A stretch of 38,693 nt of DNA from Polyangiaceae bacterium (GTDB lineage Bacteria; Myxococcota_A; Polyangia; Polyangiales; Polyangiaceae): positions 1 to 38,693 of the forward strand of contig JAICXU010000001.1 of NCBI GenBank assembly GCA_025934595.1, written 5' to 3'. The position numbers and the translations under genes are program-made. Below the pieces are notes generated by a model. It was given only the letters and a program-made list of their open reading frames with translations. It ran no database searches and had not been told where the DNA came from. Shown piece after piece: positions 4,113 to 28,444 of this stretch (positions are counted from its first letter, which is position 1; each line of letters starts with the position of its first letter).

Positions 4113-4180
4113 TTTCGGGCCAAATTTGCGGCCATCGGGGAGCGTTTCGGTGCGCGCCAAAATCCGCTAGCGTCCGCGCC

Positions 4181-4945: not shown

Positions 4946-5601
4946 GCGGCCTCTCCCGAGAGCAAATCGCGCAGCGCGCCGCACAAGAATTGCGCGACGG
5001 CTTTTACGTGAACCTCGGCATCGGCATGCCGACGCTCGTCGCGAACTACATTCCGCCGGGCGTCGAGGTCGTCTTGCAATCGGAGAACGGCCTCCTCGGC
5101 ATCGGCCCGTGGCCGGTCGCTGGAAAAGAAGACGCCGATCTCATCAACGCCGGAAAAGAGACGGTCACGATGCTGAAGGGCTCGGCGATCTTTTCGAGCT
5201 CCGACAGCTTCGCGATGATCCGCGGCGGTCACATCGACCTCGCGATCCTCGGCGCGATGCAAGTCTCGGCTCGCGGCGATCTCGCGAACTGGATGATCCC
5301 AGGCAAAATGGTGAAGGGCATGGGCGGCGCGATGGACCTCGTCGCTTCCGCCAAGCGCGTCGTCGTGATCATGGAGCACACCGCGAAAGGCGGCGCGCCG
5401 AAGATCTTGAACGAGTGCAACTTGCCGCTCACCGGTCTTCACGTCGTGCACCGCATCATCACCGAGCTCGCGACGATCGACGTCACGAAAGACGGTCTCG
5501 TTCTGCGTGAAGTGGCGCCCGGCGTCAGCGCGAAAGACGTGCAAGAGCGCACGGAGCCCACGCTCCTCGTGCCGAGCGACCTCGCGACGATGAAAGTGTA
5601 G
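4942..5601 (+). CDS. scoB: 3-oxoacid CoA-transferase subunit B
   Basis: ATG at 4942 follows GGAGG (4931-4935) and overlaps the scoA stop. Product [33 protein letters not shown]...SENG... has the beta-subunit glutamate motif. The upstream 80 codons of tracked ORF 4702..5601 are out-of-frame scoA sequence. Confidence 0.9.
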
Positions 5602-14992: not shown

Positions 14993-15555
14993 AGTGGCTT
15001 ATTTTTGCTTGTATTTTATGTGCAGGGTGCAACCATTCACCCGCGAGCTCGACGCCTGTGACGACCACCGCGTCGATTCCGAGCGCGACGGCGTCCACGC
15101 CGGCAAGCGCAGACCCGGCTCCGAGCGCGACGGCGACCGTGGCTTCGAACGGGGATCCCTGCGCGCACGCATCCGCATGGGCGGTCGATCGAGCGCTCGA
15201 TCAAAAGGGCGGCGACATCCAGATCCTCGCGTGGCGTCAGAAGTCCGACGATCGCCCCCTTTACGTCGACGAAGCGCTCGTGTGGCAACACGGCGAAGCC
15301 GGCTGGACGCTCGCGCAAGTGTATCGCCACCCGAAAGAAGACAACGCGTTCCATCTCTCGATCGTGTGCGATGCGCCGTATCAGCCCGAGAAATCGTACG
15401 ACCATGCGCCCAAGGTGAAAGACGTGAAAGATTTTTTGAAGAACACGACGTGGGCCGATGGGCTCGTCGGGTTCAAGCTCGACGCAGGCAAGGCGTGCAC
15501 GGACAACTGGTCGCGCGTGATCGGCGCCCCACCGCCTGCGAACGTTCTCGAGTAA
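14989..15555 (+). CDS. Lipoprotein, function unknown
   Basis: ATG 14989 overlaps the glmM stop (ATGA). MKWLIFACILCAGC lipobox, then a Thr/Ser/Pro/Ala linker and a globular domain. It is the only credible part of the Arg-rich tracked ORF 13708..15555. Confidence 0.65.
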   Translation: MKWLIFACILCAGCNHSPASSTPVTTTASIPSATASTPASADPAPSATATVASNGDPCAHASAWAVDRALDQKGGDIQILAWRQKSDDRPLYVDEALVWQHGEAGWTLAQVYRHPKEDNAFHLSIVCDAPYQPEKSYDHAPKVKDVKDFLKNTTWADGLVGFKLDAGKACTDNWSRVIGAPPPANVLE

Positions 15556-15594
15556 GGAAGCTTTCGGCGCGCGGCCCGTAGAACGGGGCGGGCC

Positions 15595-16170
15595 ATGTCG
15601 ATCGCGCGATTTGCCGTATTTTCTGCCGTTCTAGCGATCGCAGGTGTAGCGCTCGTCGCATGCGGCGCAGCCCACGGCGCGGATTTCCAGTCCGCGGACG
15701 CGAGCGCCGAGTCGGGCCACCGATGGCCGGGCTCGACCGACGACTCCGGCACGACGAACGGCGGTGACGGATCGAGCGTCGAAACCGACGGCGGCACGGA
15801 GCTCGACGGCGCGATCGTCGATGGCCCGACCGCGGACGAGTGCCTCGAAGGTTGGGCGGCATATGATGGCGGGTGCCCTGCCCCGACCATCACCGACTCG
15901 TATGTGGGCAACGGGTGCGTGGGTACCACGGGATGGTTCGTGGACGGCGCGAACTTCCAAGTCCGCCAGCACAACACCGGCGTCGCCGATGACGGGCCGC
16001 AATCGTTCGGCGCGAACGGCAATCAGATGATGTGGAACGTCATCACGACGACGCAGCTCTGCGTGACGGTGTCGGCGGGCGCGAAGGACGCGTGGGTGGG
16101 ACACACCATCTACGTCGTGAATCCCGACGGCAAATCCTCGAACTCCGTCATCGTCGGCGACAGGCTCTGA
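15595..16170 (+). CDS. Lipoprotein with Gly/Asp-rich linker and C-terminal beta-rich (Ig-like?) domain, function unknown
   Basis: 191-aa ORF. Signal peptide with lipobox AGVALVAC. Non-Arg-biased composition. Confidence 0.6.
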   Translation: MSIARFAVFSAVLAIAGVALVACGAAHGADFQSADASAESGHRWPGSTDDSGTTNGGDGSSVETDGGTELDGAIVDGPTADECLEGWAAYDGGCPAPTITDSYVGNGCVGTTGWFVDGANFQVRQHNTGVADDGPQSFGANGNQMMWNVITTTQLCVTVSAGAKDAWVGHTIYVVNPDGKSSNSVIVGDRL

Positions 16171-16266
16171 ACCGCCTATTTTTGGCTCGATCCGCTATCC
16201 TCGAGGGATCGTTCGAGTCCCGGTGTGGAAGCGGAATAGGCCTCGGATGCCCAGTTTCATGGGACT

Positions 16267-17013
16267 TCAGAAGCTGAGGCCGCCGTCGACGTCCATCGTC
16301 CGGGCGTTGAAGTAGTCGCACTCGATCGTGAACTTCACCGCGCGCCAGATGTCGTCGGGCTCGCCGATGCGCCCGCTCGGGATCATCGCGACCACCGCAT
16401 CGCGCGCTTTTTGATTCATGCCGCGTGTCATCGGCGTCTCGATCATGCCGGGCGCGATCGCCGTGCAGCGAATTCCGAATTGTGCCCATTCGCGCGCCCA
16501 CGTGAGCGTGTTCGCGGCGAGCGCGGCTTTCGCGGCCACGTAGTTCGATTGCCCGCGATTGCCGTGCCGCGAGATCGACGAGATGTTGACGACGACGCCG
16601 GGCCTCACGTTTTTCTCGGCCATGTAGGCGACGACCTCTTGCGCCATGAACGTGGCACCCGAGAGATTCACGTCCAGCACGACCTTCCAGTCTTGCTTCG
16701 ACAATTTTTTGATCGCGCCGGTCTCGCGATCTTTTTTCACGAGCAGGCCGTCGCGAAGGATGCCCGCGCAATTCACGAGCGCGTTCAATCCACCCATTTT
16801 TTCCGCCGCCCATGCGACGAACGCCTCGCAATGGTGCGGGTCGGACACGTCGAGCTTGCGCTGATGAATGCTCTGCGGCAGCTCCGACAAAAGCGATTCG
16901 TTGATGTCGCCGGCGGCGACTTGCGCGCCTTCGGCGGCGAGCTGACGCGCGAAATGGGCGCCCATGCCCGAAGCCGCGCCGGTGACGATGACTTTCAATT
17001 CGGAAAGCTTCAC
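16267..17013 (-). CDS. Short-chain dehydrogenase/reductase, 3-hydroxyacyl-CoA dehydrogenase / acetoacetyl-CoA reductase-like (PhaB-like role inferred from context)
   Basis: GTG 17013 is preceded by GGAG and overlaps the phaC stop (GTGA). TGAASGMG Rossmann motif, NISS...YVAAK catalytic motif. The upstream 145 codons of the tracked ORF overlap phaC out of frame. Confidence 0.8.
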   Translation of the reverse strand: MKLSELKVIVTGAASGMGAHFARQLAAEGAQVAAGDINESLLSELPQSIHQRKLDVSDPHHCEAFVAWAAEKMGGLNALVNCAGILRDGLLVKKDRETGAIKKLSKQDWKVVLDVNLSGATFMAQEVVAYMAEKNVRPGVVVNISSISRHGNRGQSNYVAAKAALAANTLTWAREWAQFGIRCTAIAPGMIETPMTRGMNQKARDAVVAMIPSGRIGEPDDIWRAVKFTIECDYFNARTMDVDGGLSF

Positions 17014-18050
17014 GAGAGATCTCCTGAGTGGATGAATGATTGCGCCGGCGCGTCGGCGTGCTCTTCGAGCCACGCGGCAACGGCGGGATACAAAACCTTC
17101 GATGCTTTCGATCCCACGACCGCGCCGACGTCGCCGCCGGACACGCGGAGCACGTCCTTCACGCTGGCGCCCGAAAAATCTCCGAGCGCGGTCGCGGCGT
17201 CGGGCGGACAAATCGCATCGCGGTCGGCCACGATGGACATCACGGGAGCCTTGATTTTCCCTAGATCCACGCGTTTTCCGGCCACGCGATGCTCGCCGCG
17301 AACGAGCGCGTTCGATTGATAGAGGTCTCGGATGTACGTGGCGTACGCGGCGCCGGGAAACGGCACGTTGTCCTGCGACCAAGCCTCGAGCGCGTCGAAC
17401 GCTTCGCGCGCCTTCGGATCGTGCATGCGAAGGGCGATGCCGATCCACTTCGCGATCGGGAGCGTCGGCCGCATCGCGGAAAATCCGCTTTGCATTTGCC
17501 AGGCAGGCAGATTTCCTGCGTCGGCGATCGCCTGCGCATCGAAGTGCTTCGGATCGACGAGCTCACCGAGCAGACCCGCCTTCGAAAAGTCGATGGGCCC
17601 GAGCAAGTTGACGAGCGCCGCGATCTCGCCGGGATGGAGCGCAGCGTGAATGGCGGCGAGCGTGCCGCCCATGCAGTAGCCGAGGAGCGCGTATTTCTGC
17701 GCGCCCGAATCTCTCCGCACGGCGCGCGCCGCATGACGAAGGCGCGCGAGCACGTCGTCCCAGGAAAAGTAACGGTCCTCGTCCTCGGCGATACCCCAAT
17801 CGAGCAGATACACCGAGCGCTGCGGACGCGCGCGTACGAGCGACTCCACGAGGCTCGCGCCGGGCCTGAGATCGAGCACGAACCACCGGTTGATCATCGA
17901 TGGCACGAGGAAGAGCGGCGTCGCGTTCGAACGAAGCGGCACACCTGCCGCGTCCTGAGGCTGTGCGCCGCGGAATCGGTAGAGCGTGGCCGTGCCGATC
18001 TTCAGGATCGCGTCTTTGGGCGTCGCCGCGACGGTGACCGCGCTCGTCAT
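17010..18050 (-). CDS. phaC: Class III/IV-type PHA synthase catalytic subunit PhaC (copy 1), with Asp in place of the conserved catalytic His
   Basis: ATG 18050 lies 2 nt after the upstream gene's stop. Lipase-box-like GYCMGG (Cys nucleophile), ADRDAICPP (Asp). The expected GGH(I/V)G reads SGGDVGAVVG (codon GAC). 346 aa, typical of class III/IV size. Confidence 0.85.
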   Translation of the reverse strand: MTSAVTVAATPKDAILKIGTATLYRFRGAQPQDAAGVPLRSNATPLFLVPSMINRWFVLDLRPGASLVESLVRARPQRSVYLLDWGIAEDEDRYFSWDDVLARLRHAARAVRRDSGAQKYALLGYCMGGTLAAIHAALHPGEIAALVNLLGPIDFSKAGLLGELVDPKHFDAQAIADAGNLPAWQMQSGFSAMRPTLPIAKWIGIALRMHDPKAREAFDALEAWSQDNVPFPGAAYATYIRDLYQSNALVRGEHRVAGKRVDLGKIKAPVMSIVADRDAICPPDAATALGDFSGASVKDVLRVSGGDVGAVVGSKASKVLYPAVAAWLEEHADAPAQSFIHSGDLS

Positions 18051-18052
18051 CG

Positions 18053-18322
18053 TCAGCCCCCGACCGTGAACATCTCCGACGAGCGCTTGACGGCCTCGAG
18101 CGAGAGCCGGCGCCACTCGGCGTTCAGCGCCGATGCGTACGCGAACGACTCTTTCGTGAGCTTCGCGAGCTCGTCGACCACCTGCGTCGCCTGCTCGTTC
18201 CGCTTCGTCTCCATCTTTGCGAGCTCGTCGTAGAAAGCCGTGGTGCGCGAGACCGCGTCTTCCATCGATTTCTTCCAAAACGCCTGGAATTGCTGCAACT
18301 GCACATTTTCTTTGTCGGCCAT
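18053..18322 (-). CDS. Small coiled-coil PHA granule-associated protein (phasin / PhaE-like)
   Basis: ATG 18322 is preceded by GGAGGA. The 89-aa helical product MADKENVQLQQFQAFWKKSMED... sits between phaR and phaC. The WKKS[MF] motif is shared with the small protein at 24816. Confidence 0.6.
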   Translation of the reverse strand: MADKENVQLQQFQAFWKKSMEDAVSRTTAFYDELAKMETKRNEQATQVVDELAKLTKESFAYASALNAEWRRLSLEAVKRSSEMFTVGG

Positions 18323-18363
18323 GATGTCCTCCGTTCGCCGCACATTCCTGCGGAACGCGCGGG

Positions 18364-18392
18364 AACATACGAACCGCGCATCGGACCGTCAA
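18364..18392 (-). promoter_or_regulatory. Sigma70-like promoter for the phasin-phaC-SDR operon: TTGACG-17 nt-TATGTT
   Basis: Minus strand reads TTGACG gtccgatgcgcggttcg TATGTT, about 40 nt upstream of the GGAGGA-ATG at 18322. Confidence 0.5.
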
Positions 18393-18401
18393 GGCATTTT
18401 G

Positions 18402-18416
18402 TGTTGCAGTGCAACA
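18402..18416 (-). promoter_or_regulatory. Putative PhaR operator: perfect 7-1-7 palindrome TGTTGCA-G-TGCAACA (core TGC-N3-GCA) upstream of phasin-phaC-SDR
   Basis: Read directly from the sequence. It sits in an AT-rich patch 9 nt upstream of the -35 element below. The TGC-N3-GCA core matches my recollection of alphaproteobacterial PhaR boxes. Confidence 0.55.
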
Positions 18417-18420
18417 AAAT

Positions 18421-18969
18421 CTATTTTCGACGCGCGCGTACGGTCTTCTTCAGCTTTTCGAGCTCGCGGCGAAGCTCGGCGACTTGATCCGCAGACGAAG
18501 CCGTCGAGACTGGCGGCGGCGGCGGCATCGGCGCGGCTTGCGGCGGCGGCCCCGGCTCCTGCGCTTGCGCCCATGGGTTCGATCCCATCATCATGCGAGC
18601 CAGCGCGTTGCCCGCGGAGAACGGCGCGGTCGCGAGCGGAACGTACGGCGAGAGCGCCTGCGCTTGCGAGCGCGCGCGCATGTAGATCTCGAGCGCCCAG
18701 GACATGTATCGGCCAAAAAACTCGGCCAATGCTTCGTTTTCGAGGCGGATCAACTGCGTCAGAAACGGCACCGGCAAGAGCCGCGCGCCGCCCCGGCTCT
18801 CGAGGATGATCTGCGTGAGTGTCGCCGCTGTCAGATCTTCGTCGGTCTTCGCGTCGACCACCGTGACATCGGCGCCGACTTTGATCTTGTGAGCGAGCTC
18901 GTCGAGCGTGATGTACTTGCTGTCGACGGTGTCGTAGAGGCGGCGGTTCGAATATTTTTTGACGATCAT
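18421..18969 (-). CDS. phaR: Polyhydroxyalkanoate synthesis repressor PhaR
   Basis: MIVKKYSNRRLYDTVDSKYITLDEL...VVDAKTDEDLT...LTQIILE matches the conserved PhaR N-terminal DNA-binding domain. Confidence 0.9.
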   Translation of the reverse strand: MIVKKYSNRRLYDTVDSKYITLDELAHKIKVGADVTVVDAKTDEDLTAATLTQIILESRGGARLLPVPFLTQLIRLENEALAEFFGRYMSWALEIYMRARSQAQALSPYVPLATAPFSAGNALARMMMGSNPWAQAQEPGPPPQAAPMPPPPPVSTASSADQVAELRRELEKLKKTVRARRK

Positions 18970-19050
18970 GCGCGGCAGCCACTATCGCACAAGGGTCCGA
19001 CACCGCAACCTGCACCTCGATCCGAGACCGGACGACCAAGGCGTGCATTT

Positions 19051-19065
19051 TTGTGCATTGCAACA
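19051..19065. promoter_or_regulatory. Putative PhaR operator 2 (TTGTGCA-T-TGCAACA; 12/15 identical to site 1) in the phaR / MFS divergent region
   Basis: TGCATTGCA is a 4-1-4 palindrome. The right half, TGCAACA, is identical to site 1. It is flanked by a GTGCATT direct repeat (19043-19049 and 19053-19059). Confidence 0.45.
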
Positions 19066-19069
19066 TTTT

Positions 19070-19102
19070 TGGCTTGACGATTGCGGTCGCCGGCCGTATT
19101 TC
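19070..19102 (+). promoter_or_regulatory. Candidate promoter for the 19164-28444 gene block: sigma54-like TGGC-N7-TTGC (19070-19084), overlapping a sigma70-like TTGACG-17 nt-TATTTC (19074-19102)
   Basis: TGGCTTGACGATTGC has GG and GC at the -24/-12 spacing. Alternatively TTGACG, then 17 nt, then TATTTC. The two readings are mutually exclusive and neither is verified. Confidence 0.3.
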
Positions 19103-19117
19103 ACGCCTCGCTCGGCT

Positions 19118-19132
19118 TGTTGCAGCGCACTA
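19118..19132. promoter_or_regulatory. Putative PhaR operator 3 (TGTTGCA-G-CGCACTA; left half identical to site 1), 32 nt upstream of the MFS start codon
   Basis: Contains TGCAGCGCA (TGC-N3-GCA). 12/15 identical to site 1. Confidence 0.35.
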
Positions 19133-19163
19133 GAGCGCCGCGTCGAGCCCCGGAGATCGCCCG

Positions 19164-20381
19164 ATGAATGCTCGCCCGCGTACGACCCTCGGCCTTTCCG
19201 CGCTCCTCCAAGCCGTCGGCGGCGGCCTCGGCTGGTCGCTGGTTCCTGCCGTGATGCCCGACATCGCAAAGGATCTGACGTTCGGGCACGCGAGCGCAGG
19301 TGCGGTCTTCGGCGCCGCGTCTCTCGGCATCGCGCTCGCCTCGCCCTTCGGAGGCAGCGCGGTCGATCGCTTCGGCGCGCGTCGCACGGCCGGATTCGCG
19401 ATGCTGTTCGGGGCGGTGACGTGCGGTTTGAGGGCGTTTGCGCATACGCCGGCCATTCTCGCGGCGTGCATGTTTCTCTTCGGGCTGCACATCGGATTCG
19501 TGGCGCCGGCCCTTCCCAAGGCTCTCTCTGCGCACGTGCCGCCGGCTCGCTTCGCGCGAGCGAACGGTCTCACCGTGCTCGCGTACACGTTCGGCACGGC
19601 GATCACGATGGTGACGGCGCGCACGTGGCTCTTGCCGTATCTCGGTGGTTGGCGACACGCGATGCTGTTTGCGGCCGGGGCAATGGCGCTCGCAGGCGTG
19701 GCGTGGCTCGTCTGCATTCGTGACGGATTTATTGCGACGCACCATGCGACCTTGCGATCGTCGTTCGCGCTTCTCGGAAATGGCGCCGTTCGGCGCGTCG
19801 CCGCCGCGCACTTTCTGCTCTTCGGGGGCTACCTCGCGCTCCTCTCGTCGCTCCCGCATCTGTTGATCGAAGCCGGCGTAGACAAGACGAAGGTCGGCAT
19901 TTCGATCGCGGCGTGGCTCGCAACGGCCGGTCTCGCGAATTTCGTGGGACCGTCATTTTCCGACCGCATGGAACGTCGCAAGCCCGTGATTTTAGGAGGA
20001 GCAGCGTTGGCGGGCCTCGCCCTGACCGCCGTCGCGTTCGCTCCGGCAGCACAAAAGCCCTTGTTTTTGGCGGTCGCGGCGATCGGTGGCGGCGCATTCG
20101 CTCCTCTTCTTTTGACGATCCCGTTTGAGCTGCCGGGCGTTGGCTTGGCGCGAGGCGGAGCGGCGCTCGGTCTCTTGATGATGCTCGGCCAGGTCGGTGG
20201 GTTCTTGCTCCCCGTCTTGGTTGGTGGAACATCTGAGGCCGCCGGTTTTCGGGCGGCGATCCTGACCCTCGCCATGCTCCATGCGTTCATCTTGATCCCC
20301 GCTCTCGGTCTGCCCGAGACGGGCCGTGCGGGCGATCATTCGGGCAGCGCTTGGCAAAAGAACACGGGCGACGTCGCGTGA
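19164..20381 (+). CDS. MFS transporter
   Basis: 405 aa, about 12 hydrophobic segments. MFS motif A-like GGSAVDRFGARRT between TM2 and TM3. Confidence 0.8.
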   Translation: MNARPRTTLGLSALLQAVGGGLGWSLVPAVMPDIAKDLTFGHASAGAVFGAASLGIALASPFGGSAVDRFGARRTAGFAMLFGAVTCGLRAFAHTPAILAACMFLFGLHIGFVAPALPKALSAHVPPARFARANGLTVLAYTFGTAITMVTARTWLLPYLGGWRHAMLFAAGAMALAGVAWLVCIRDGFIATHHATLRSSFALLGNGAVRRVAAAHFLLFGGYLALLSSLPHLLIEAGVDKTKVGISIAAWLATAGLANFVGPSFSDRMERRKPVILGGAALAGLALTAVAFAPAAQKPLFLAVAAIGGGAFAPLLLTIPFELPGVGLARGGAALGLLMMLGQVGGFLLPVLVGGTSEAAGFRAAILTLAMLHAFILIPALGLPETGRAGDHSGSAWQKNTGDVA

Positions 20382-20386
20382 AGATC

Positions 20387-21346
20387 ATGAAACGCGCGCG
20401 ATCGATTTGGCTTCTCGCGACATTCGGCGTCGCGATCGGCGCGCTCCTCGCGTGCTCGAGTGGATCGGATCGTCAGTGCACGGTCGGCGCGGACTGCGCG
20501 AGCGGCGCATGCAACGCCGACGGCACGTGCGTCGCGGTGGCGAGCGGCAGCACCGACGGCGGCACGAGCCTCGGTGACGGAGGATCCACCACCGGATCCG
20601 ACGGCAGCACGTTTCCGATCGACGCGTCGCCTCTCGCATGTGCGACGGACGGCGGCGCGCTCGGCCACGACAACGTCCCGATCGCAGCGGGTCTCACCGC
20701 GACCTTCGAGGTCGCGACGAACGAGACGGTAGATACGGCCGGCACCGACAACGGCGATGGCTCCAAAACATGGGATTTTACCGTATCGTTCGCGTCGGAC
20801 CAAAGCGTGATCGTGCAAACGCTCTCGCCGTCCGGCGCATGGTGGGCTCCCGACTTCACGACCGCCACGTACGCGTCGAAGCTCGTGCAAGCACAGAGCA
20901 CGCTCGGTGTCTTCGACTACGGCGCGAATTCGCTCGATCTCGTCGGCGTCGTTTCACCGACGAGCGACGGCGTCACCGAGACCGAGCTCACCTACGCGAC
21001 GCCGATCCCCATCCTCGCGTTCCCGCTCCACATGGCGCAGACGTGGTCGACGACGTCGAACGTCAGCGGCAAGTTGAACGGCGTCACGGCGCTCTACTCC
21101 GAGACCTACGACTCGAAGGTCGACGCGTACGGCACGGTGAAGACGCCCTATGGAAATTTTGCTGCACTGCGAGTAGGAACGTTGCTGACGCAAAATGCAG
21201 GCGCCGTCACGAAGACGCGCACCTACGCGTGGGTCACCGCGTGCTTCGGCACGATCGCGAAGGCCACGTCGACGTCGATGACGAACACGGGCACACCCGG
21301 CGAGAACTTCACGCAGACCGCGGAGCTCATGAGGCTTGCCCCGTGA
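20387..21346 (+). CDS. Lipoprotein A of an envelope module (paralog of 23918..24784), function unknown
   Basis: ATG 20387 gives MKRARSIWLLATFGVAIGALLAC (lipobox). Cys-rich CTVGADCASGACNADGTC, Gly/Ser/Thr linker. The conserved core shares WDF[TS]V, TYDxKVDAxGT, ALRVxT, CFGxxAxATS and F-T-x-[TA]-A-E-[LV]-x-R-L motifs with the downstream paralog. Confidence 0.7.
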   Translation: MKRARSIWLLATFGVAIGALLACSSGSDRQCTVGADCASGACNADGTCVAVASGSTDGGTSLGDGGSTTGSDGSTFPIDASPLACATDGGALGHDNVPIAAGLTATFEVATNETVDTAGTDNGDGSKTWDFTVSFASDQSVIVQTLSPSGAWWAPDFTTATYASKLVQAQSTLGVFDYGANSLDLVGVVSPTSDGVTETELTYATPIPILAFPLHMAQTWSTTSNVSGKLNGVTALYSETYDSKVDAYGTVKTPYGNFAALRVGTLLTQNAGAVTKTRTYAWVTACFGTIAKATSTSMTNTGTPGENFTQTAELMRLAP

Positions 21347-22323
21347 ATGCGGTACGCGAGCTGCTCTTTCGCCTAGGTCTGGGTCTAGGCCTCGGTCTTC
21401 TTCTCTGTCTCGAAGCAGGGTGCATGACTTTCCATCAAGGTCCGATGCCGGGCGAGCCGAAAACTGCGTCGTTCGCGAACGTCGAAGGCGTGCGCGTTCG
21501 CTACGTCGACACGGGCGGTGACAAGCCGGCCGTCGTTCTCATTCATGGATTCGCGTCGTCGCTCGATGCATGGGCCACCGTCATCCCCGAGCTCGCGAAG
21601 ACCCACCGCGTGCTCGCCCTCGATCTCAAAGGGTTCGGTTGGACCGATCGACCCGAGGGTGACTATTCGCCCGACGCCGAAGCGCAGCTCGTGCTGGCGC
21701 TCATGTCGCAGCGCAACATTCCACGCGCGGATCTCGTCGGGCATTCCTGGGGCGCGTCGGTGGCGCTCGCGGCGGCGATGCGCGCGCCCGATCGCGTGAA
21801 GCGTCTCGCGCTCTATGACGCGTGGGTCTACGAAGGCCAGCTTCCGGCGACGTTTCACTGGTCGCGCACGGGCGGCGTCGGCGAGATGCTGTTCGGTCTG
21901 TATTACAAGCAGCGCGCCGACGAGAAGATGGCGATGGCCTTCTACGATCAGAGGTACGTGACCGAGGAGCTCGTCGACGCGGTGGAAGAAGCGCTCGACA
22001 GGCCAGGCACCGTGGCGGCGGCGCTCGCGGCGGTGCGCGGACAGCGCTTCGCGGGCGTCGAGGCGAATTACCGTAAAATTCAGCAGAAAACGTTGCTTCT
22101 GTGGGGACGCGAGGATGCCGTCGCCACGCTCGATTTCGGCGAGCGGCTCGCGCGCGATCTGCCGAACGCACACCTCGTGGTGTATCCGCGCTGCGGACAT
22201 TTTCCGATGATCGAGGCGCGCGCGGAGTCGAATCGCGACCTCGTCGCCTTCTTGAGCGACGCGCCCGAGCCGACGACGACTAGCGAGAAACCCGCGCCTG
22301 GATCGAGCGAGGCCACGCCGTGA
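21343..22323 (+). CDS. Secreted alpha/beta-fold hydrolase (esterase/lipase-like), possible lipoprotein
   Basis: GTG 21343 overlaps the upstream stop (GTGA). (LG)4-containing signal peptide ending LEAGC. HGFASS oxyanion region, nucleophile elbow GHSWG, C-terminal CGHFPMIE His motif. Confidence 0.8.
   Translation: MNAVRELLFRLGLGLGLGLLLCLEAGCMTFHQGPMPGEPKTASFANVEGVRVRYVDTGGDKPAVVLIHGFASSLDAWATVIPELAKTHRVLALDLKGFGWTDRPEGDYSPDAEAQLVLALMSQRNIPRADLVGHSWGASVALAAAMRAPDRVKRLALYDAWVYEGQLPATFHWSRTGGVGEMLFGLYYKQRADEKMAMAFYDQRYVTEELVDAVEEALDRPGTVAAALAAVRGQRFAGVEANYRKIQQKTLLLWGREDAVATLDFGERLARDLPNAHLVVYPRCGHFPMIEARAESNRDLVAFLSDAPEPTTTSEKPAPGSSEATP
21373..21396 (+). repeat. Degenerate hexamer repeat CTAGGT CTGGGT CTAGGC CTCGGT, encoding (Leu-Gly)4 in the hydrolase signal peptide
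   Basis: Read directly. It shares the ttcgcCTAGGTCT lead-in with the 23951 repeat. Confidence 0.85.
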
Positions 22324-23915
22324 GAGGGTCGGCGCCGTTCGCTCATGCTCTCGCGCTCGGCGTGTTCGCGCTCGTGCTTGCGCAATCGAAGCGCGCGCGC
22401 GCGACGGGCTTCAGCGACCTCGGCGAGGACATCGTGCAGCGCGACAAAGTCGCGGTCACCGTCGACGGTTACTTGCGCACGCGCGGCACGGCCTACGGCA
22501 ACCTCGATCTCGATCGCGGCCCCACGCCTTCCGGGCAGCTCCTCTTTCCGGTCTCGCAGGCCGACCCGAAAGCGCAGTGGCTGACGAATTGGGACATGCG
22601 CCTTCGCACCGACATCGCGATCTATGCGCCCGGGCAAACCCTCGCCGTGAAGGTCCGCATGGACGCGCTCGACAATCTCGTTCTCGGGAGCTTGCCGAAC
22701 GGCGCGCCGTCCGCGACCACGTCACAAAACGCTCCAAATCAAGCGCTTTCGTTGAAACGCGCCTACGGCGAGGCGCTCCTTCCATTCGGTCTCCTCGCCG
22801 CAGGTCGCATGGGATCGCATTGGGGCCTCGGCATTCTCACGAACGGCGGCGACTGCCTCGATTGCGACAGCGGCGACGCGGCCGATCGCATCGCGCTCGT
22901 GACGCCGCTCGCGGATCACATCTTCGCGCTCGCCTACGATTTCTCCGCGATCGGTCCGCTGCAAGGAACGACGACGCAGCCGAATCACGTCGTCGACGTC
23001 GAGCCATCGGTGGACGTGCACACGCTCACGTTTGCTGCGATGCACTATAAAAACGATGCATCGCGAGAGCGGCGTCGACGTGCCGGTCGCACGACGGTGG
23101 AATATGGCGCGTACTTTTCGCATCGTTGGCAGAACGACGACATCCCTGCTTCGTATCTCCCCGTCGCGACGCCGGTCGCGGTCACGCCGGCGGAGGTGAT
23201 GCATCGCGGATATCAAGCGAACGCCGCCGACGCATGGGGACGCCTCACCTTCCCGGTCGCGCGCGTCGAGTTCGAGATCGCGTATTTGCAAGCATCGGTC
23301 GATCAAGCGTCGCTCCTGCCGGGCGCGCTCCTCCGCGATCCGGTGACGAGCCATCAGCTCGGCGCGGCGCTCGAGAGCGATGTCGGCGCGCCGGCGGATC
23401 GATTCGGGTTCGGGCTCGATATGGGTTACGCGAGCGGCGACCCGGCGCCGGGGTTCGGCGTGAATACGCCGGCAAACGCGCAGCAGCCGAAGCCGGGCGA
23501 CCTCGACGGGCCGCAAGCTTCGCCGCCGAACGACACGCGCGTCGACAACTTCCGCTTTCATCCGGACTACCGCATCGATCAAATTCTCTTTCGCGAGATC
23601 ATTGGCACCGTGACCGACGCCGCCTACGTTCGTCCGCACGTGCGCGCGCGCGTCGCGCAATGGACGAGCGCGCAAATCACGACGAGCCTCGCGGGCATCG
23701 CATCGACGGCAGCGAATGCGTCCTCGACGCCCGGAGGAGCGGCGCCGCTCGGCGTGGAGCTCGATCCGCAAATCGCCTATTCGGGCAGAGAAGGCCTCTT
23801 CGTCGCGCTCGAAGGCGGATGGCTTTTGCCGCTCGCCGGTCTCGACAATCCGCAACTTCACATGGACGCAAAAATGGTAGGCCTCGTGCGCCTGCGAATC
23901 GCGTTTCTGTTCTGA
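22320..23915 (+). CDS. Outer-membrane beta-barrel protein (porin/channel-like), function unknown
   Basis: GTG 22320 overlaps the upstream stop (GTGA). Signal peptide ALALGVFALVLAQS. Many amphipathic beta-strand segments. C-terminal ...LRIAFLF ends in Phe as in OM barrels. Confidence 0.65.
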   Translation: MRGSAPFAHALALGVFALVLAQSKRARATGFSDLGEDIVQRDKVAVTVDGYLRTRGTAYGNLDLDRGPTPSGQLLFPVSQADPKAQWLTNWDMRLRTDIAIYAPGQTLAVKVRMDALDNLVLGSLPNGAPSATTSQNAPNQALSLKRAYGEALLPFGLLAAGRMGSHWGLGILTNGGDCLDCDSGDAADRIALVTPLADHIFALAYDFSAIGPLQGTTTQPNHVVDVEPSVDVHTLTFAAMHYKNDASRERRRRAGRTTVEYGAYFSHRWQNDDIPASYLPVATPVAVTPAEVMHRGYQANAADAWGRLTFPVARVEFEIAYLQASVDQASLLPGALLRDPVTSHQLGAALESDVGAPADRFGFGLDMGYASGDPAPGFGVNTPANAQQPKPGDLDGPQASPPNDTRVDNFRFHPDYRIDQILFREIIGTVTDAAYVRPHVRARVAQWTSAQITTSLAGIASTAANASSTPGGAAPLGVELDPQIAYSGREGLFVALEGGWLLPLAGLDNPQLHMDAKMVGLVRLRIAFLF

Positions 23916-23917
23916 TC

Positions 23918-24784
23918 ATGATCACCAAGCGCACACAAACCCGTCTTCGCCTAGGTCTAGGTCTAGGTCTAGGTCTGAGTCTTCTCGCCTGCGGCGAGAA
24001 CCAAACCCACCCTGTTCGTGACGACTACGACGCCGGCGTCCCTGCTCCTCTCGCATGCGTCCCGAATCTCGATGGCAAGATCGACGCGAACGAAATTCAG
24101 CCTGCGATCGGAATCCCGCTTTCCTACTTGGTGTCGCCGGCGGGCGTCACGCGTGACGTGAACGTCGCGGGCACCGTCGACTCCGATGGCCATACGGTGT
24201 GGGATTTTTCGGTGGACTACGCGAACGACGAAGTCGCGCGGATCCAAGCGCAAAATCTCGCCGGAAAGTGGTACGCGTCGTCGTTTCCCGCGAGCGGATT
24301 CGTCGTCGCGCAAGACGCGGGTGACCGGCTCGAAGGCGTCATTCTCTTCGACGCGAGCGGATATCGGCTCGCCGGGCTCGCGTCGACCGACGAGAACCCG
24401 CCCGAGGGAAAGACGCTTTATGTGTATGATACACCTGTCGATCTGTTTCGATTTCCGATGACGCCCGGAGTCTCGTTCACGTCGACAGGAAACGTGCAGA
24501 ATGCAACTTTGCGCGGGCTGCCGTACGCCGGAAAGGACACGTACGACGTGAAGGTCGACGCGGCCGGCACGTTGATCTTGCCGTCGGTCACGTTCACGCA
24601 AGCGCTTCGCGTGCGCACGACGCTTACGGCGACGCCCGCGGCGGGACAACCGGCAACGACGCGCCAAGTTTCATTTCTCTTCGAATGCTTCGGTGAGGTG
24701 GCGCGTGCCACGAGCCAGACGAACGAGACGCAAGACGATTTCACGACGGCGGCCGAAGTTCGCCGCCTCGGACTTTTGCCATGA
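23918..24784 (+). CDS. Lipoprotein B of the envelope module (paralog of 20387..21346), function unknown
   Basis: ATG 23918 lies 2 nt after the barrel gene's stop. MITKRTQTRLRLGLGLGLGLSLLAC lipobox. Core collinear with lipoprotein A (see that entry). Confidence 0.7.
   Translation: MITKRTQTRLRLGLGLGLGLSLLACGENQTHPVRDDYDAGVPAPLACVPNLDGKIDANEIQPAIGIPLSYLVSPAGVTRDVNVAGTVDSDGHTVWDFSVDYANDEVARIQAQNLAGKWYASSFPASGFVVAQDAGDRLEGVILFDASGYRLAGLASTDENPPEGKTLYVYDTPVDLFRFPMTPGVSFTSTGNVQNATLRGLPYAGKDTYDVKVDAAGTLILPSVTFTQALRVRTTLTATPAAGQPATTRQVSFLFECFGEVARATSQTNETQDDFTTAAEVRRLGLLP
23951..23980 (+). repeat. Tandem hexamer (CTAGGT)x4 plus a degenerate fifth unit CTGAGT, encoding (Leu-Gly)n in the lipoprotein B signal peptide
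   Basis: Read directly: ctaggtctaggtctaggtctaggtctgagt. Confidence 0.9.
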
Positions 24785-24815
24785 CTAGCCTGACGAAGAG
24801 GCGCGGAGAAAAATC

Positions 24816-25103
24816 ATGATGACGTGGGACAGCTGGAAAAAAAGCTTCGACGTGTGGGAGAACGAGACCGCGAAATTTCTCGAGACGTGGGTGAAGAGCC
24901 CGCTCGTGCTCGGCCCGAGCGGCATGATGCTCACGCAGGCGATGAAGGCGAAGGCGCAATACGACAAAGCCCTCGCGCAATTTTGGGGCAGCGTCGGCTT
25001 GCCCACCAAGCGCGATCAAGAGCGCACGCTCCATCTCTTGAACAAGCTCGAATCGCGTCTGCTCGATCTCGAGGAGCAGCTGGAAGAGCAGCAGAAGGCC
25101 TAG
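24816..25103 (+). CDS. Small PHA synthase accessory subunit, PhaR(class IV)/PhaE C-terminal-like
   Basis: GGAG, then 7 nt, then ATG. The 95-aa product has [18 protein letters not shown] and [31 protein letters not shown]. This resembles the ...NVPTKEDIANV...LEEKVDRIEE region of Bacillus PhaR / PhaE as I recall it. Confidence 0.6.
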
Positions 25104-25122
25104 CCCTCGACCTCGACCTAGG
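25104..25122 (-). repeat. Inverted, degenerate copy of the same hexamer family (minus strand CCTAGGT CGAGGT CGAGGG) in the gap between the PhaR/E-like gene and the acyl-CoA synthetase gene
   Basis: Plus strand reads ccctcgacctcgacctagg, directly after the TAG stop at 25101-25103. Confidence 0.6.
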
Positions 25123-25141
25123 CAAAGACGGAGAACCCATC

Positions 25142-26920
25142 ATGGACATCACGCCCTACCTCGACATGAAGCCCGCGCCTCGCGCCGTGTTCGATTCGCT
25201 CTCGACCCGCGCGCACCTTCCGCGATTTTACGTACCGACGCCGGACGGCGGATATTCGCTCGTCACGTGGCAGGCGTTCGCGGACGAGATCCGCGACGTC
25301 GCGCTCTTCTTGCAGCCAATCCTCGGGAAAGAAGATCGCGCATGCGTGCTCGCGCCGAACTCGGTGGCCTGGGCCAGCGCGGCGCTCGCGATTCAAGCCG
25401 CGGCCGGCGTCATGGTGCCGATCTACCCGGCGTCGACGGCGGCGCAGATTGGTTATGTTGCAGCGCACAGTGACGCGAAGGTGGTCTTCGTCGACACGGC
25501 CGCTCTTCTGTCGCGCCTCTTCGACTGTTGGAGCGAGCTCGCGCACGTCGAGAAGATCGTGCTCCTGTCCGCTGCGGTGGACGCGCGAAAGACATTCGAC
25601 GACTGGCGCACGAAGACGAGCTCGAGCCAAAAAGAAGCTATTTCATCGGCGGACATCGCTGCTCGTGTCGTGTCGTGGCGCGAAGCGAAGGCGGCCGGGC
25701 GCGCCGCCCACGAGAAGAATTCGAGCGCGTTCGACGCGATGCTCTCGTCGGTGTCGCTCGATCAGCTCGGCATGATGCTCTACACGAGCGGCACGTCGGG
25801 CAATCCGAAGGGCGTTCCTTTGTCGCACCGCAACGTAGCGGTGAACGGGCAAGATTGGCTCGTCTGCAACGGACCGCAGCTCGGGGAAAACAACGTCGAC
25901 ATCCTGTGGCTTCCCATGAGCCACATCTTCGGCTTCGGGGAGATGTGCCTCGGCAACACGCTCGGGTTCACCACGTACCTCTCGGATCCGGCGACCTGCC
26001 TCACGAAGATGCCGGCGCTGAGACCGACGGTGTTCATGAGCGTGCCTTCGCATTGGGAGAAGCTCGCGCAAATGAGCATGCACGAGCCGACGCAAGAAGG
26101 TCGCGTGAAAAAATTCGTCGAGACGACGGGCGGCCGGCTTCGGTTTTGTTTGTCGGGTGGCGCGGGCCTCAAACGCGAGGTGAAGGATTTCTTCTACGCG
26201 TGCGGCGTACTCATCATCGAGGGCTATGGTCTCACCGAGACGTCGCCCACGCTCACCCTCAATCGCCCCGACGCATTTCGTTTCGATTCGGTCGGCAAGC
26301 CCTTGCCGAGCGTGGAGCTCAAGCTCGCCGAAGACGGGGAAATTCTCGCGCGCGGAGCGAGTGTGTTTCGCGGCTACCACAAGGACGAACCGGCGACGCG
26401 CGAAGCGTTCACCGCCGACGGCTGGTTCCAAACCGGCGACGTCGGCCGCTTCACCGACGACGGCTTTCTCCAGATCATCGATCGCAAGAAGGACATCTTG
26501 GTGACGGCCGGCGGCAAGAACGTGCCTCCTGCCAACATCGAGGTTCGCTTCGGGGGCGATCCGCTCCTCGCCCATGTCGTCGTCTACGGCGACGCGAAGA
26601 AGTTCCTCGTCGCGGGCGTGTGGCTGAACGAAGCGGTCGTGCGCGCCGAGCTCGAGTCGAAAGGCACGACGCCCGATCACATGAGCGCCGCGCGACGGGA
26701 GATCGTCGCCCAACGGATCGAGCGCGTGAACCAAGGGCTCGCGAGCTACGAGTCAATCAAGAAGTTCGCGATCATGAGCGAGCCGCTCACCGTCGAAGGC
26801 GGCCTTCTCACCGCGTCGTTCAAGGTGCGCCGCAAGAAGGTCTACGAGGCGTTCAAGCCGGCGTTCGAAGCGATGTACGCCGAAAATGATGCTCCGCGTC
26901 CCGCAGTGCAACATGCCTGA
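25142..26920 (+). CDS. AMP-forming long-chain acyl-CoA synthetase (FadD/FAA1-type)
   Basis: ATG 25142 follows GGAG. AMP-binding motif [12 protein letters not shown]; GYGLTETS; WFQTGDVG...DRKKD; C-terminal K in FKVRRKKV. The tracked start at 24824 overlaps the preceding gene out of frame. Confidence 0.85.
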
Positions 26921-27986
26921 GCAAGCGTTCTCGCGAATCAAAAATCTTTTGGGGCTTGCCGCTCGCAAGCGCCCGGAGGTCGGAGTCACGCCCGCGGACG
27001 TGGTCCATCGCGAGAACAAATGGTCTCTGCTTCATTATCGACGCGCGACGCCGGCGCGTTACAAAACACCTATTTTGTTCGTGCCGTCGCTCATCAATCG
27101 GCACTACGTGATGGATCTCGTGCCGGGCAAGAGCATGGCGGAGTGGCTCCTCGCGCAAGGCCACGACGTGTACTGCATCGACTGGGGCACTCCCGGCGAC
27201 GAGGATCGGTACCTGAGCTTCGACTCTATCTGCGACAAATATCTCGGTCGCGCGCTTCGCATTGCAGCAAAGAGCTCGCCGCGCGGCCAGGCCCATGTGC
27301 TCGGCTATTGCCTCGGCGGCACGCTGGCCGTCATCCACGCCGCTGCGCACCAAGAGAAAATCGCCTCGATGGCCCTTCTCGCGGCGCCCGTGAGCTTCAA
27401 AGACGAGGGGCCTCTCGCGGCGTGGACCCAATCGCCCGACTTCGATCCGGAGGCGATCACGCGTGCATGGGGAAATGCGCCGTGGCCGCTGCTTCAAAGT
27501 GCATTCCACATGCTGCGGCCGACGTTGAATCTCGCAAAGGCCATGCACCTCGTCGATCGCGCGTGGAACGACGAGTTCCTCGACGGCTTTCTCGCCGTGG
27601 AGACGTGGGGCAACGACAACGTGTCGTTCCCCGGCGCGGCGTTCGTTCGCTACATCGAGGATTTGTATCGAAAGGACGCGCTCGTGAACGGCGACATGAC
27701 GCTGTCCGGAAAGCCCGCGAAGCTGGAGTCGATCGCGTGTCCGCTCCTCGCGGTCACGTTCGAGCACGACAACATCGTGCCGTGGAGGAGCGCGGCGCTC
27801 GTCGTCGATCGCGTCGCATCGACCGACAAAACGCACGTGAAGCTCCCGGGCGGTCACGTCGGCGCGGTCGTGTCCAAGTCGGCGTCGAAAGGGCTCTGGC
27901 CCATGCTGTCGAAGTTCTTCGTCGATCACGAAGCGAGAGGCGTGAAGACGCGCGGCGCGCGGTCGGCTAACGTCGCTCGTCGATGA
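26913..27986 (+). CDS. phaC: Class III/IV-type PHA synthase catalytic subunit PhaC (copy 2), full Cys-Asp-His set present
   Basis: GYCLGG (Cys), FEHDNIVPW (Asp), [10 protein letters not shown] (His). Collinear with copy 1. Start is ATG 26913 (8-nt overlap with the ligase) or ATG 26886. Confidence 0.85.
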
Positions 27987-28444
27987 CGATTTACATCTTC
28001 GGCTTCCTCATCGGATTCGTGGCCGGCCTGCGATCGATGACGCCGCTGGCGGCCGTGAGCATCGGCGCGTTCATCGGCCATCTCAAGGTCGACAAGTCCG
28101 CGGTCGCGTTTCTCGCCGAATCGCCGGCTCCTTACATTCTGAGCGCGCTCGCGCTCGTCGAGCTGGTGTTCGACAAGCTGCCGGTCACGCCGAGCCGGAA
28201 AGCGATCGGGCCATTTTTAGCGCGAATCGTGACAGGCGGTCTATCCGGCGCGGCCCTCGGCGCGGCGGGCGACGCTCTCCTCGGATGCGCGTTCGTCGCC
28301 GCTGCCGGCGCGGCGTTCGGCACGCTCGTCGGAGGCTCGGCACGCGCGAGCCTCGCGGCAGGGTTCCGAAAAGATTTTCCCGCTGCGCTCATCGAAGATG
28401 CGTTCGCGATCGGCGGCGCGGCGATGCTCGTCGCGCTGGCGTAG
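27983..28444 (+). CDS. DUF4126-like integral membrane protein
   Basis: ATG 27983 overlaps the phaC2 stop (ATGA). 153 aa, 4 hydrophobic helices. ELVFDKLPVTPSR resembles the DUF4126 signature as I recall it. Confidence 0.6.
   Translation: MTIYIFGFLIGFVAGLRSMTPLAAVSIGAFIGHLKVDKSAVAFLAESPAPYILSALALVELVFDKLPVTPSRKAIGPFLARIVTGGLSGAALGAAGDALLGCAFVAAAGAAFGTLVGGSARASLAAGFRKDFPAALIEDAFAIGGAAMLVALA

Follow-up and report, generated by a model that had tools for sequence, protein, structure and literature searches.

For decades, catalogues of polyhydroxyalkanoate (PHA) loci have listed purely cytoplasmic sets of genes. What, then, is a PHA synthase gene doing in one block with an outer-membrane barrel and lipoproteins? 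The question is raised by a run of plus-strand genes in a 38,693-nucleotide stretch of a Polyangiaceae genome (contig JAICXU010000001.1; the whole stretch, with a base composition of ~64% G+C, is called the window here). In this run, the genes of two lipoproteins (lipoA and lipoB), an alpha/beta-hydrolase and an outer-membrane beta-barrel are followed by those of a small PhaE-like protein, an acyl-CoA synthetase (the ligase) and the PHA synthase PhaC2, with the regulator gene phaR placed divergently upstream. We find that the cluster is real, widely conserved and uncharacterized, and that a functional model in which acids are imported, activated and polymerized is plausible. Its interest lies in the linkage, across many species, of a synthase, a ligase and a PHA-sensing regulator to an outer-membrane channel and three lipoproteins.

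An earlier interpretation of the same DNA (the sequence-only reading) had described nine plus-strand genes with almost no spacing, running from a major facilitator superfamily (MFS) transporter to a DUF4126-like membrane protein, and had proposed that they form a single unit. All nine open reading frames (ORFs) and every junction that it described are present at the positions given; the frames translate cleanly with zero internal stops and a G+C content at third codon positions of 0.70-0.84. MFS and lipoA are spaced by 5 nucleotides (20382-20386), GTGA overlaps join lipoA to the hydrolase gene (at 21343) and the hydrolase gene to the barrel gene (at 22320), and 2 nucleotides (23916-23917) lie between barrel and lipoB. 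The small PhaE-like gene is bounded by gaps of 31 nucleotides on its 5' side (24785-24815) and 38 nucleotides on its 3' side (25104-25141). Further downstream, the ligase gene and phaC2 overlap by 8 nucleotides (26913-26920), and at 27983 phaC2 and the DUF4126 gene overlap by ATGA. Neither an Rfam nor a tRNA scan of the window returned a match, and terminator-like sites were not above background.

Related loci were collected by a scan with the barrel as query, using one genome per GTDB species. This returned 253 relatives, of which the best 80 loci were taken, and related loci were compared by tblastn with all proteins of the window. All of the best 80 of the 253 belong to Myxococcota, the named hosts among them being Labilithrix luteola DSM 27648, Minicystis rosea DSM 24000 and metagenome-assembled genomes named Sandaracinaceae and Byssovorax. 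Barrel homologues are also abundant in metagenomes, where the named sources are Polyangiaceae, Myxococcales or Labilithrix, and the first metagenome contigs inspected have the gene order of the window. The order lipoB, small gene, ligase, phaC2 is kept in 54 of the 63 loci with at least 5.2 kb of DNA after the barrel. Among the 65 loci with upstream DNA, a divergent phaR is found in 62 and phaR and/or a PhaC-like gene in 64. The median gap lies between -22 and +30 nucleotides at every junction of the related loci. The same order and short junctions recur in dozens of species-level genomes although the proteins are only 40-80% identical, and the block is therefore beyond chance. A lack of conserved gene order in related genomes, which the sequence-only reading had named as the result that would speak against a unit, was decisively not what we found: envelope genes, ligase and PhaC2 form one tightly packed conserved unit.

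The proposed nine-gene unit has to be trimmed at both ends. The MFS gene is found in nine related loci only, always immediately 5' of lipoA, and was rejected as a core member on these grounds. For the DUF4126 gene, no tblastn match was listed in any of 85 loci; its translational coupling to phaC2 is seen in the window only, and it too was rejected and probably lies outside the system despite this coupling. The other seven genes hold up, and the conserved core is lipoA, hydrolase, barrel, lipoB, the small PhaE-like gene, ligase and PhaC2, together with the divergent phaR.

Loci with other gene orders are informative about which parts travel together. Six loci are without the small gene, ligase and phaC2 3' of lipoB. 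A PhaC1-like gene with a DUF3141/PHB_depo_C signature precedes the four envelope genes in L040 and L069, and also in L089, a more distant relative (barrel 42% identical), and the neighbors are PhaR, a longer class-III-like PhaC and a non-orthologous ligase from a different AMP-binding subfamily; in L069, a sodium:solute symporter of the SSF type occupies the slot before lipoA that the MFS gene has in the window. L088 (barrel 40% identical) carries the hydrolase, the barrel and two lipoproteins, then a ligase of orthologous type (40% identity), and after it two paralogous 460-residue proteins (14286-15662 and 15662-17044) that are 46% identical to each other. Both have GYCGLG, Asp and Gly-His motifs and a weak BLASTP match to the C-terminal Asp/His region of PhaC2 (E 0.005); searches with these proteins (u458, u460) gave neither a Pfam match nor a PDB sequence match, and the pair could be PhaC-like enzymes of extreme divergence. 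Across three gene orders, and down to 40% protein identity, the envelope module thus stays linked to a PhaC-like gene and a ligase. A PHA link of the whole barrel family, TIGR04551, was considered and rejected: members of 650-750 residues, which are much more distant, lie in unrelated gene contexts, and the linkage is for this reason confined to the subfamily of ~525-560 residues.

What are the envelope proteins? The barrel is a member of TIGR04551 (327.9 bits against an NCBIfam cutoff of 300), a family of 1306 clusters at 50% identity (E <= 1e-3) for which no mention was found in the literature searched. A signal peptide is present and the last residue is Phe; Pfam gave no match at E <= 0.01, TonB-dependent receptor, plug and SusD families included. 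Its AlphaFold2 model has 18 strands, with a predicted local distance difference test score (pLDDT) of 64.5 and a predicted template modeling (TM) score of 0.64, the strands being confident and the loops poor. Foldseek placed AlgE first (E 1e-11, TM-scores 0.45/0.53), followed by porins and OpdK/OccK channels; the TM-scores of these matches, ~0.45-0.55, go with a model of pLDDT 64.5, and no FadL-like fold was among the matches. In the orthologue comparison, many invariant positions are Arg, Asp or Glu, and we infer a charged, substrate-specific pore. Two loop motifs are invariant as well, GGDCLDCDSGDAADR, which contains an invariant Cys pair, and DNFRFHPDYRIDxILFREIIG. The Cys pair sits in an Asp-rich loop at residues ~175-190.

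The two lipoproteins are paralogues (32% identity, E 1e-30) and neither has a Pfam or NCBIfam match. Behind its lipobox, lipoA carries a conserved four-Cys motif, C-x-VGADC-x-SG-x-C-xxDG-x-C, which, like the Cys pair of the barrel, may be a disulfide or metal-binding element. The lipoA homologue in L089 has a weak match to DUF7107. The AlphaFold2 model of lipoB shows a beta-rich domain (pLDDT 87.8) for which Foldseek found nothing significant in the PDB, the best match being a YmcC-like lipoprotein (E 6e-3, TM-scores 0.31/0.39); cellular retinoic-acid-binding protein II (CRABP II) and LprG were further weak, non-significant fold matches.

The hydrolase had been described as a secreted GHSWG enzyme. 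The enzyme type is right, since Pfam identifies Abhydrolase_1 (E 1.3e-31) with this box, and Ser-Asp-His and an HGF motif are present in 78 of 78 orthologues. Rather than being freely secreted, however, the protein is a lipoprotein: its N terminus has a conserved lipobox-like L-x-G-C followed by SFHxGPMPGEP, and the lipobox Cys is conserved in the orthologues of the hydrolase, lipoA and lipoB alike. Among proteins of solved structure, it comes closest to C-C hydrolases such as CumD (E 3.5e-31) and to entry 6i8w (E 1e-24, "alpha/beta fold hydrolase"), which we take to be PlaF, a phospholipase A1 of P. aeruginosa. An in-frame hexanucleotide repeat, (GGTCTR)n, encoding (Gly-Leu)n, is found in the signal peptides of the hydrolase (21376-21389) and lipoB (23954-23979); 0 are expected by chance, and the window has no other copy. 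The orthologues inspected lack the repeat, which may have arisen by gene conversion between the two signal sequences or be a tract prone to slippage. The concern that the lipoprotein or barrel families might turn out to be well-characterized parts of an unrelated pathway is not borne out, as the family and fold searches connect them to no well-characterized component of any pathway.

On the cytoplasmic side, PhaC2 (PhaC_N and Abhydrolase_1 in Pfam) can be aligned over its full length to PHA synthases of known structure (C. necator PhaC, 5hz2, E 6e-31), with Cys, Asp and His in register, and the triad is present in all 63 distinct sequences aligned. Among the class models, class III scores best (253.1 bits, against 161 for class I and 68 for class II), below the cutoff of 365.3 bits of the class III model TIGR01836 (PHA_synth_III_C). 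The small gene had been called PhaR/PhaE-like. No similarity to PhaR was found, and the PhaE part of the name is the one that stands: the 95-residue protein matches positions 229-295 of the 311 of PF09712 (E 2e-3, 17.9 bits against a gathering cutoff of 25.7), and 25 of 42 orthologues match at E <= 0.01, the best at 7.6e-6. It falls short of a full-length PhaE (~300 residues or more, PF09712 above the gathering cutoff), and its profile found no match among PDB sequences. At best, it would be a PhaE-derived mini-subunit (mini-PhaE below). The closest matches of the ligase (AMP-binding, E 1.4e-65, and AMP-binding_C_3) are ligases of the long-chain/FadD11 type and, in their adenylation domains, carboxylic-acid reductases; its best equivalog model, FadD11, gives 231 bits, where the cutoff is 950. 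No signal or transmembrane segment is present in the ligase, PhaC2 or mini-PhaE.

Is the operon under the control of PhaR? The regulator matches PF07879 (PHB_acc_N), the DNA-binding domain, at E 2.8e-25 with 88.6 bits against a cutoff of 25, and reaches 98.2 bits for TIGR01848, slightly under its cutoff of 109.45. A PhaR consensus, TGCRNYGCASMA, has been derived from footprints in Bradyrhizobium (PMC6201568), and in Sinorhizobium the palindrome YGCRNYGCR has been described, two copies of which flank the -35 of S. meliloti phaP (phasin) promoters (PMC12542648). The window boxes at 19054, 19121 and 18405 (TGCAGTGCAACA) each agree with the Bradyrhizobium consensus in 11 of 12 positions, and all three fit the Sinorhizobium palindrome. 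Across ~60 loci, TGC-N3-GCA sites occur at 7.8 per kb in the phaR-operon intergenic regions, usually two in each, versus 0.48 per kb elsewhere (16-fold). Between phaR and the adjoining phasin-like gene, at least one PhaR box is present in 49 of 49 loci, and the internal gaps of the window operon contain none.

The sequence-only reading had seen PhaR-box-like palindromes on either side of the only promoter-like sequence upstream (19051-19132) and taken them as a link to PHA control. The boxes are indeed there. The promoter is less clear: a sigma-70 scan of the phaR-MFS intergenic region (18982-19163) found none at scan thresholds, and only a weak element, TTGACG-17-TATTTC (19074-19102), can be discerned by eye, flanked by the boxes at 19054 and 19121. 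This placement around a promoter-like element is comparable to the two copies that flank the -35 of the S. meliloti phaP promoters. On sequence grounds, the predicted control of the operon by PhaR is well supported. In rhizobia, the regulons of PhaR extend widely, to genes for transport and for the envelope or exopolysaccharide (PMC6201568, PMC12542648).

Next to phaR on the minus strand lie a phasin-like gene and a second synthase gene, phaC1. A 460-residue ORF at 17010-18392 was rejected as a single protein because its N-terminal ~110 residues are out-of-frame Arg-rich sequence; the region comprises an 89-residue gene and the 346-residue PhaC1. The 89-residue protein has no Pfam or NCBIfam match but is 35% identical (tblastn, E 1e-11) to a 90-residue gene at the same position in L001. 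Its gene ends 2 nucleotides before the start of phaC1 and, in 49 related loci, adjoins phaR. Identity between PhaC1 and PhaC2 is 38%, and PhaC1 scores 227 bits for TIGR01836, under the cutoff of 365. Both PhaC proteins also match the N-terminal part of NF005898 ("acyl-CoA synthetase", a 994-residue model) with 55-91 bits; we take this model to represent Rv1683-type proteins. A short-chain dehydrogenase/reductase (SDR) of the 3-ketoacyl-reductase type is encoded beside PhaC1 in ~31 loci, and after lipoB in L089.

The catalytic residues of PhaC1 vary. Among 32 distinct sequences, 25 have Cys-Asp-His and six Ser-Asp-His, and Cys-Asp-Asp is found in the window copy only, where the catalytic His is replaced by Asp (GGDVGA for GGHVGA, codon GAC at 17130-17132 on the minus strand). 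The closest relatives, L004, L006 and L007, have no PhaC1; the His to Asp change could mean that the paralogue is decaying in the lineage of the window, or that the sequence contains an error. Ser in place of the nucleophilic Cys (GYSMGA/GYSLGA) in six orthologues hints at a switch from synthase-like to hydrolase-like chemistry inside one orthologous group.

Further annotations concern genes outside the core. The MFS protein (MFS_1, E 1.5e-34) has its best NCBIfam matches in organic-anion symporter families, all far under cutoff, and the DUF4126-like protein is a borderline match to PF13548 (27.4 bits against a cutoff of 27.5). About 14 kb upstream, at 4052-5601 on the plus strand, the window encodes two CoA-transferase subunits (Pfam CoA_trans), which are not syntenic with the cluster in L004; should they belong to the 3-oxoacid (ScoA/ScoB-like) type, a role in the catabolism of ketone bodies or 3-hydroxybutyrate would be conceivable. 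Positions of all features at the locus are listed in Table 1.

Table 1 Features of the phaR region and the adjoining plus-strand block in the window.
Feature	Position	Strand	Basis or context
PhaC1, class-III-like PHA synthase paralogue, 346 residues	17010-18050	-	TIGR01836 match, identity to PhaC2
Small phasin-like/partner protein, 89 residues	18053-18322	-	tblastn to same-position 90-residue gene in L001
Perfect palindrome TGTTGCAGTGCAACA, PhaR-box-like	18402-18416		Between phaR and phasin-like gene
PhaR, PHA-granule-binding repressor	18421-18981	-	PF07879; divergent from plus-strand operon
PhaR-box-like site TGCATTGCAACA	19054-19065		Upstream of weak -35-like TTGACG (19074-19079)
PhaR-box-like site TGCAGCGCACTA	19121-19132		Downstream of weak -10-like TATTTC (19097-19102)
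MFS transporter, accessory	19164-20381	+	MFS_1
Lipoprotein A (lipoA)	20387-21346	+	Lipobox, Cys-rich motif, low-complexity linker, beta-rich domain
Alpha/beta-hydrolase lipoprotein	21343-22323	+	Abhydrolase_1, GHSWG, Ser-Asp-His
Outer-membrane beta-barrel, TIGR04551	22320-23915	+	NCBIfam match, 18-strand model
Lipoprotein B (lipoB)	23918-24784	+	lipoA paralogue without Cys-rich module
Candidate PhaE-like mini-subunit, 95 residues	24816-25103	+	Weak PF09712 match
Acyl-CoA synthetase, long-chain or FadD11-like type	25142-26920	+	AMP-binding, AMP-binding_C_3
PhaC2, class-III-like PHA synthase catalytic subunit	26913-27986	+	GYCLGG, Asp, GGH
DUF4126-like membrane protein	27983-28444	+	PF13548, borderline

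How might these parts work together? We tentatively favor, with a confidence that stops somewhat short of an even chance, a "scavenge-to-store" operon in which import, activation and polymerization are controlled by PhaR. An outer-membrane complex made of the 18-stranded TIGR04551 channel, the two beta-rich lipoproteins and the Ser-Asp-His esterase lipoprotein would handle an external ester or carboxylic acid, the hydrolase freeing the acid and the charged channel admitting it. An inner-membrane symporter would move the acid to the cytoplasm; in the window this could be the MFS protein and in one relative the SSF protein, and in most genomes it would presumably be encoded elsewhere. The acyl-CoA synthetase would then turn the free (hydroxy)acid into a CoA thioester, and mini-PhaE and PhaC2, as a two-component class-III-like synthase, would polymerize it to PHA, directly or via (R)-3-hydroxyacyl-CoA. 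PhaR, encoded divergently with the phasin-like gene and often with PhaC1 and the SDR, would repress both operons via the TGC-N3-GCA boxes until nascent polymer titrates it and releases both. The analysis itself establishes gene content, the kept order and spacing, intact catalytic residues, lipoboxes, the fold class of the barrel and operator-like sites; in this scheme, we infer the direction of transport, the physical complex, the substrate, the binding of PhaR and the polymerization itself.

A variant, a "polyester utilization locus", strikes us as doubtful: here, the esterase lipoprotein (on the surface or in the periplasm), two lipoproteins with a binding role and the TIGR04551 channel of Polyangia-type myxobacteria would capture oligomers or monomers of hydroxyalkanoates, for example from environmental polyesters or from the PHA granules of prey that has lysed. 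The ligase and a minimal PhaE/PhaC synthase would re-polymerize them without detour in granules of the predator, and PhaR would sense the polymer.

Several observations weigh against a scavenge-to-store operon. PhaC2 and mini-PhaE both remain under the curated class-III cutoffs. Class-III-type synthases classically take short-chain 3-hydroxyacyl-CoAs, with which a long-chain-like ligase fits poorly, and to convert fatty acids to (R)-3-hydroxyacyl-CoA the core offers neither a hydratase nor an epimerase, while an SDR is near in ~31 loci only. Most clusters encode no inner-membrane transporter. The hydrolase scores far under every PHA-depolymerase cutoff (NF050089, 78.7 against 300 bits; TIGR02240, 35 against 250.6 bits). 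AlgE, the top fold match of the barrel, is an exporter, at a TM-score of ~0.5 and with low-confidence loops in the model, and the PhaR boxes could serve the autoregulation of phaR alone. Finally, the locus of Minicystis rosea DSM 24000 (L041; CP016211.1, ~6,166,031-6,187,548) has PhaC1, PhaR, the envelope genes, the small gene and the ligase, and a 1006-residue minus-strand ORF after the ligase where phaC2 is missing.

The AlgE match leads to the question of direction. An oligo- or polyester, or an esterified lipid, made by ligase and PhaC2 might be sent out through an AlgE-like barrel and deposited in the envelope, the lipoproteins acting as scaffold and the hydrolase trimming the product, in a manner likened to synthase-dependent exopolymer secretion. 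YmcC/GfcB-type lipoproteins accompany an outer-membrane barrel in capsule loci, and the best, if weak, match of lipoB is a YmcC-like lipoprotein; besides the AlgE fold (E 1e-11), the conserved loop motifs of the barrel with their invariant Cys pair would also suit such a role. We nevertheless consider export very unlikely. PHA is hydrophobic and we know of no PHA secretion system; the core has neither an inner-membrane exporter nor a membrane-embedded synthase, PhaC2, ligase and mini-PhaE are soluble, and an endogenous product needs no free-acid ligase, which is always present here, even by non-orthologous replacement. Such indirect evidence for import is extended by the transporters found in the variable slot (MFS, SSF), which belong to uptake-type families, and by the fold matches of the barrel, which include, besides AlgE, porins and OpdK/OccK channels. 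If import is accepted, the cargo may still be lipid instead of hydroxyacid. In that case the hydrolase, as a lipase or phospholipase, would attack lipids of prey or of the environment, barrel and lipoproteins would take up the fatty acids and the ligase would be a FadD; PHA precursors would arise indirectly, via beta-oxidation and a 3-ketoacyl reductase, from an acquisition module that is co-regulated with PHA storage. The long-chain or FadD11-type families of the ligase, the resemblance of the hydrolase to 6i8w, the 3-ketoacyl-reductase-type SDR by PhaC1 or, in L089, after lipoB, and the lipid-binding nature of the weak lipoB fold matches (CRABP II, LprG) all fit this route. The lipoB matches are not significant, however, genes for beta-oxidation and PhaJ are absent from the core, Foldseek gave no FadL-like match, and the charged invariant residues of the barrel would suit a hydrophilic charged pore better than a FadL-type lateral-opening channel, so that we regard the lipid route as unlikely.

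Two other explanations question the link between the halves or the chemistry of the synthase. The envelope genes might be a module for outer-membrane upkeep in general, or a nutrient channel, within the pleiotropic PhaR regulon and the small gene, ligase and PhaC2 a separate, co-regulated module that re-activates acids from the cell's own granules. The breadth of rhizobial PhaR regulons (PMC6201568, PMC12542648), the granule-associated acyl-CoA synthase of P. putida (PMC11103573), the unrelated contexts of distant TIGR04551 members and the gaps of 31 and 38 nucleotides, which could house internal promoters, are in line with this. What makes it improbable in our view is that the linkage of envelope module, PhaC-like gene and ligase is kept through three gene orders and to 40% identity, that junctions are short in almost all loci and that the internal gaps of the window have no PhaR box. 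Alternatively, the PhaC-like proteins may be Cys-nucleophile acyltransferases or thioesterases that use the acyl-CoA of the ligase, for instance for storage-lipid or lipoprotein/lipid esterification, which would parallel the Rv1683 type of actinobacterial protein, in which a PhaC-like alpha/beta domain and an acyl-CoA synthetase are fused. In favor of this count the matches of PhaC1 and PhaC2 to the N-terminal part of NF005898, the description of Rv1683 as a lipid-inclusion-associated acyl-CoA synthase/lipase (PMC10699116), the scores of both PhaCs under the class-III cutoff, the extreme divergence of the Cys-box paralogues in L088 and the Ser for Cys exchange in six PhaC1 orthologues. Given that PhaC2 aligns over its entire length with solved PHA synthases, triad included, and that a full PHA toolkit (PhaE-like partner, PhaR, phasin-like gene and PhaR boxes) is present at the locus, we give this explanation a slim chance.

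If uptake, activation and polymerization are indeed coupled here, storage polyester would be built directly from scavenged acids, which bears on carbon flow in predatory soil and activated-sludge Myxococcota. It would also give a first functional handle on TIGR04551 (~1,300 clusters, no literature found) and on a new lipoprotein fold family, and a compact uptake-activation-polymerization cassette for bioplastic recycling or upcycling. Should the polyester utilization variant be true, carbon would pass from polymer to polymer, bypassing central metabolism, and TIGR04551 and the twin lipoproteins would have their first assigned function. The hypothesis is directly testable, as the cluster is present in two strains in culture: Labilithrix luteola DSM 27648, at ~1,847,416-1,868,927 of CP012333.1, and, as a natural phaC2-less variant, Minicystis rosea DSM 24000.

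The claim of the sequence-only reading that no described pha locus has such a layout agrees with our literature search, in which none was found. Publications on PHA in Polyangiaceae and myxobacteria and on polyhydroxybutyrate in Labilithrix, Minicystis and Sandaracinus yielded no description of the cluster and no PHA phenotype; PHA genes in Myxococcota metagenome-assembled genomes have been noted generically (PMC11821767). Comparison with known systems is one of parts. The closest is the class III phaEC operon of the Allochromatium vinosum type, with which the cluster shares a ~40 kDa PhaC with G-x-C-x-G-G box and Cys-Asp-His, and a PhaE-related partner gene upstream in the operon. In contrast to phaEC, the partner here has 95 residues and matches only the C-terminal ~67 positions of the PhaE profile, an acyl-CoA synthetase gene lies between partner and synthase, and four envelope genes stand ahead of them in the operon. 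The PhaR repressor, the TGC-N3-GCA operator-like sites and the adjoining small phasin-like gene are shared with the PhaR/phasin circuit.

For the coupling of a ligase to PHA, a precedent exists in the granule-associated acyl-CoA synthase of P. putida (PMC11103573). The P. putida PHA cycle (ACS1/FadD) likewise connects a ligase for free (hydroxy)acids to a PHA synthase, but in Pseudomonas the ligase is encoded away from the pha cluster, PhaZ supplies the acids from granules of the same cell, the synthase is of class II and there is no envelope module. Mycobacterial Rv1683/BCG1721 also combines a PhaC-like alpha/beta-hydrolase fold with an acyl-CoA synthetase in carbon storage, the link through NF005898 being our assumption. 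It is, however, a single fused protein with a GXSXG serine that deals with triacylglycerol, whereas the proteins here are separate, with a Cys nucleophile and a PHA-type context.

The barrel resembles OprD/Occ channels and AlgE, its best Foldseek matches, in its predicted 18 strands, long loops and charged invariant residues. It differs from them in having no Pfam match, in TM-scores of no more than about one half, in its own loop motifs and in that, in this subfamily, the TIGR04551 barrel always has two paralogous lipoproteins and a lipoprotein hydrolase as flanking neighbors. The logic of the cluster, a channel with binding-type lipoproteins, a lipoprotein hydrolase, cytoplasmic genes and a regulator, is that of Bacteroidota Sus-like loci, as a functional analogy only: Pfam gave no match to a SusC-type barrel or a SusD-type lipoprotein, the barrel is not of the TonB-dependent SusC type, the lipoproteins have no relationship to SusD/E/F, an ester or acid takes the place of a glycan as the presumed substrate, and the presumed end point is a storage polymer rather than catabolism. 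The envelope half of the cluster is without a characterized relative, while the cytoplasmic half appears to work like a class III PhaEC system with a PhaR/phasin circuit.

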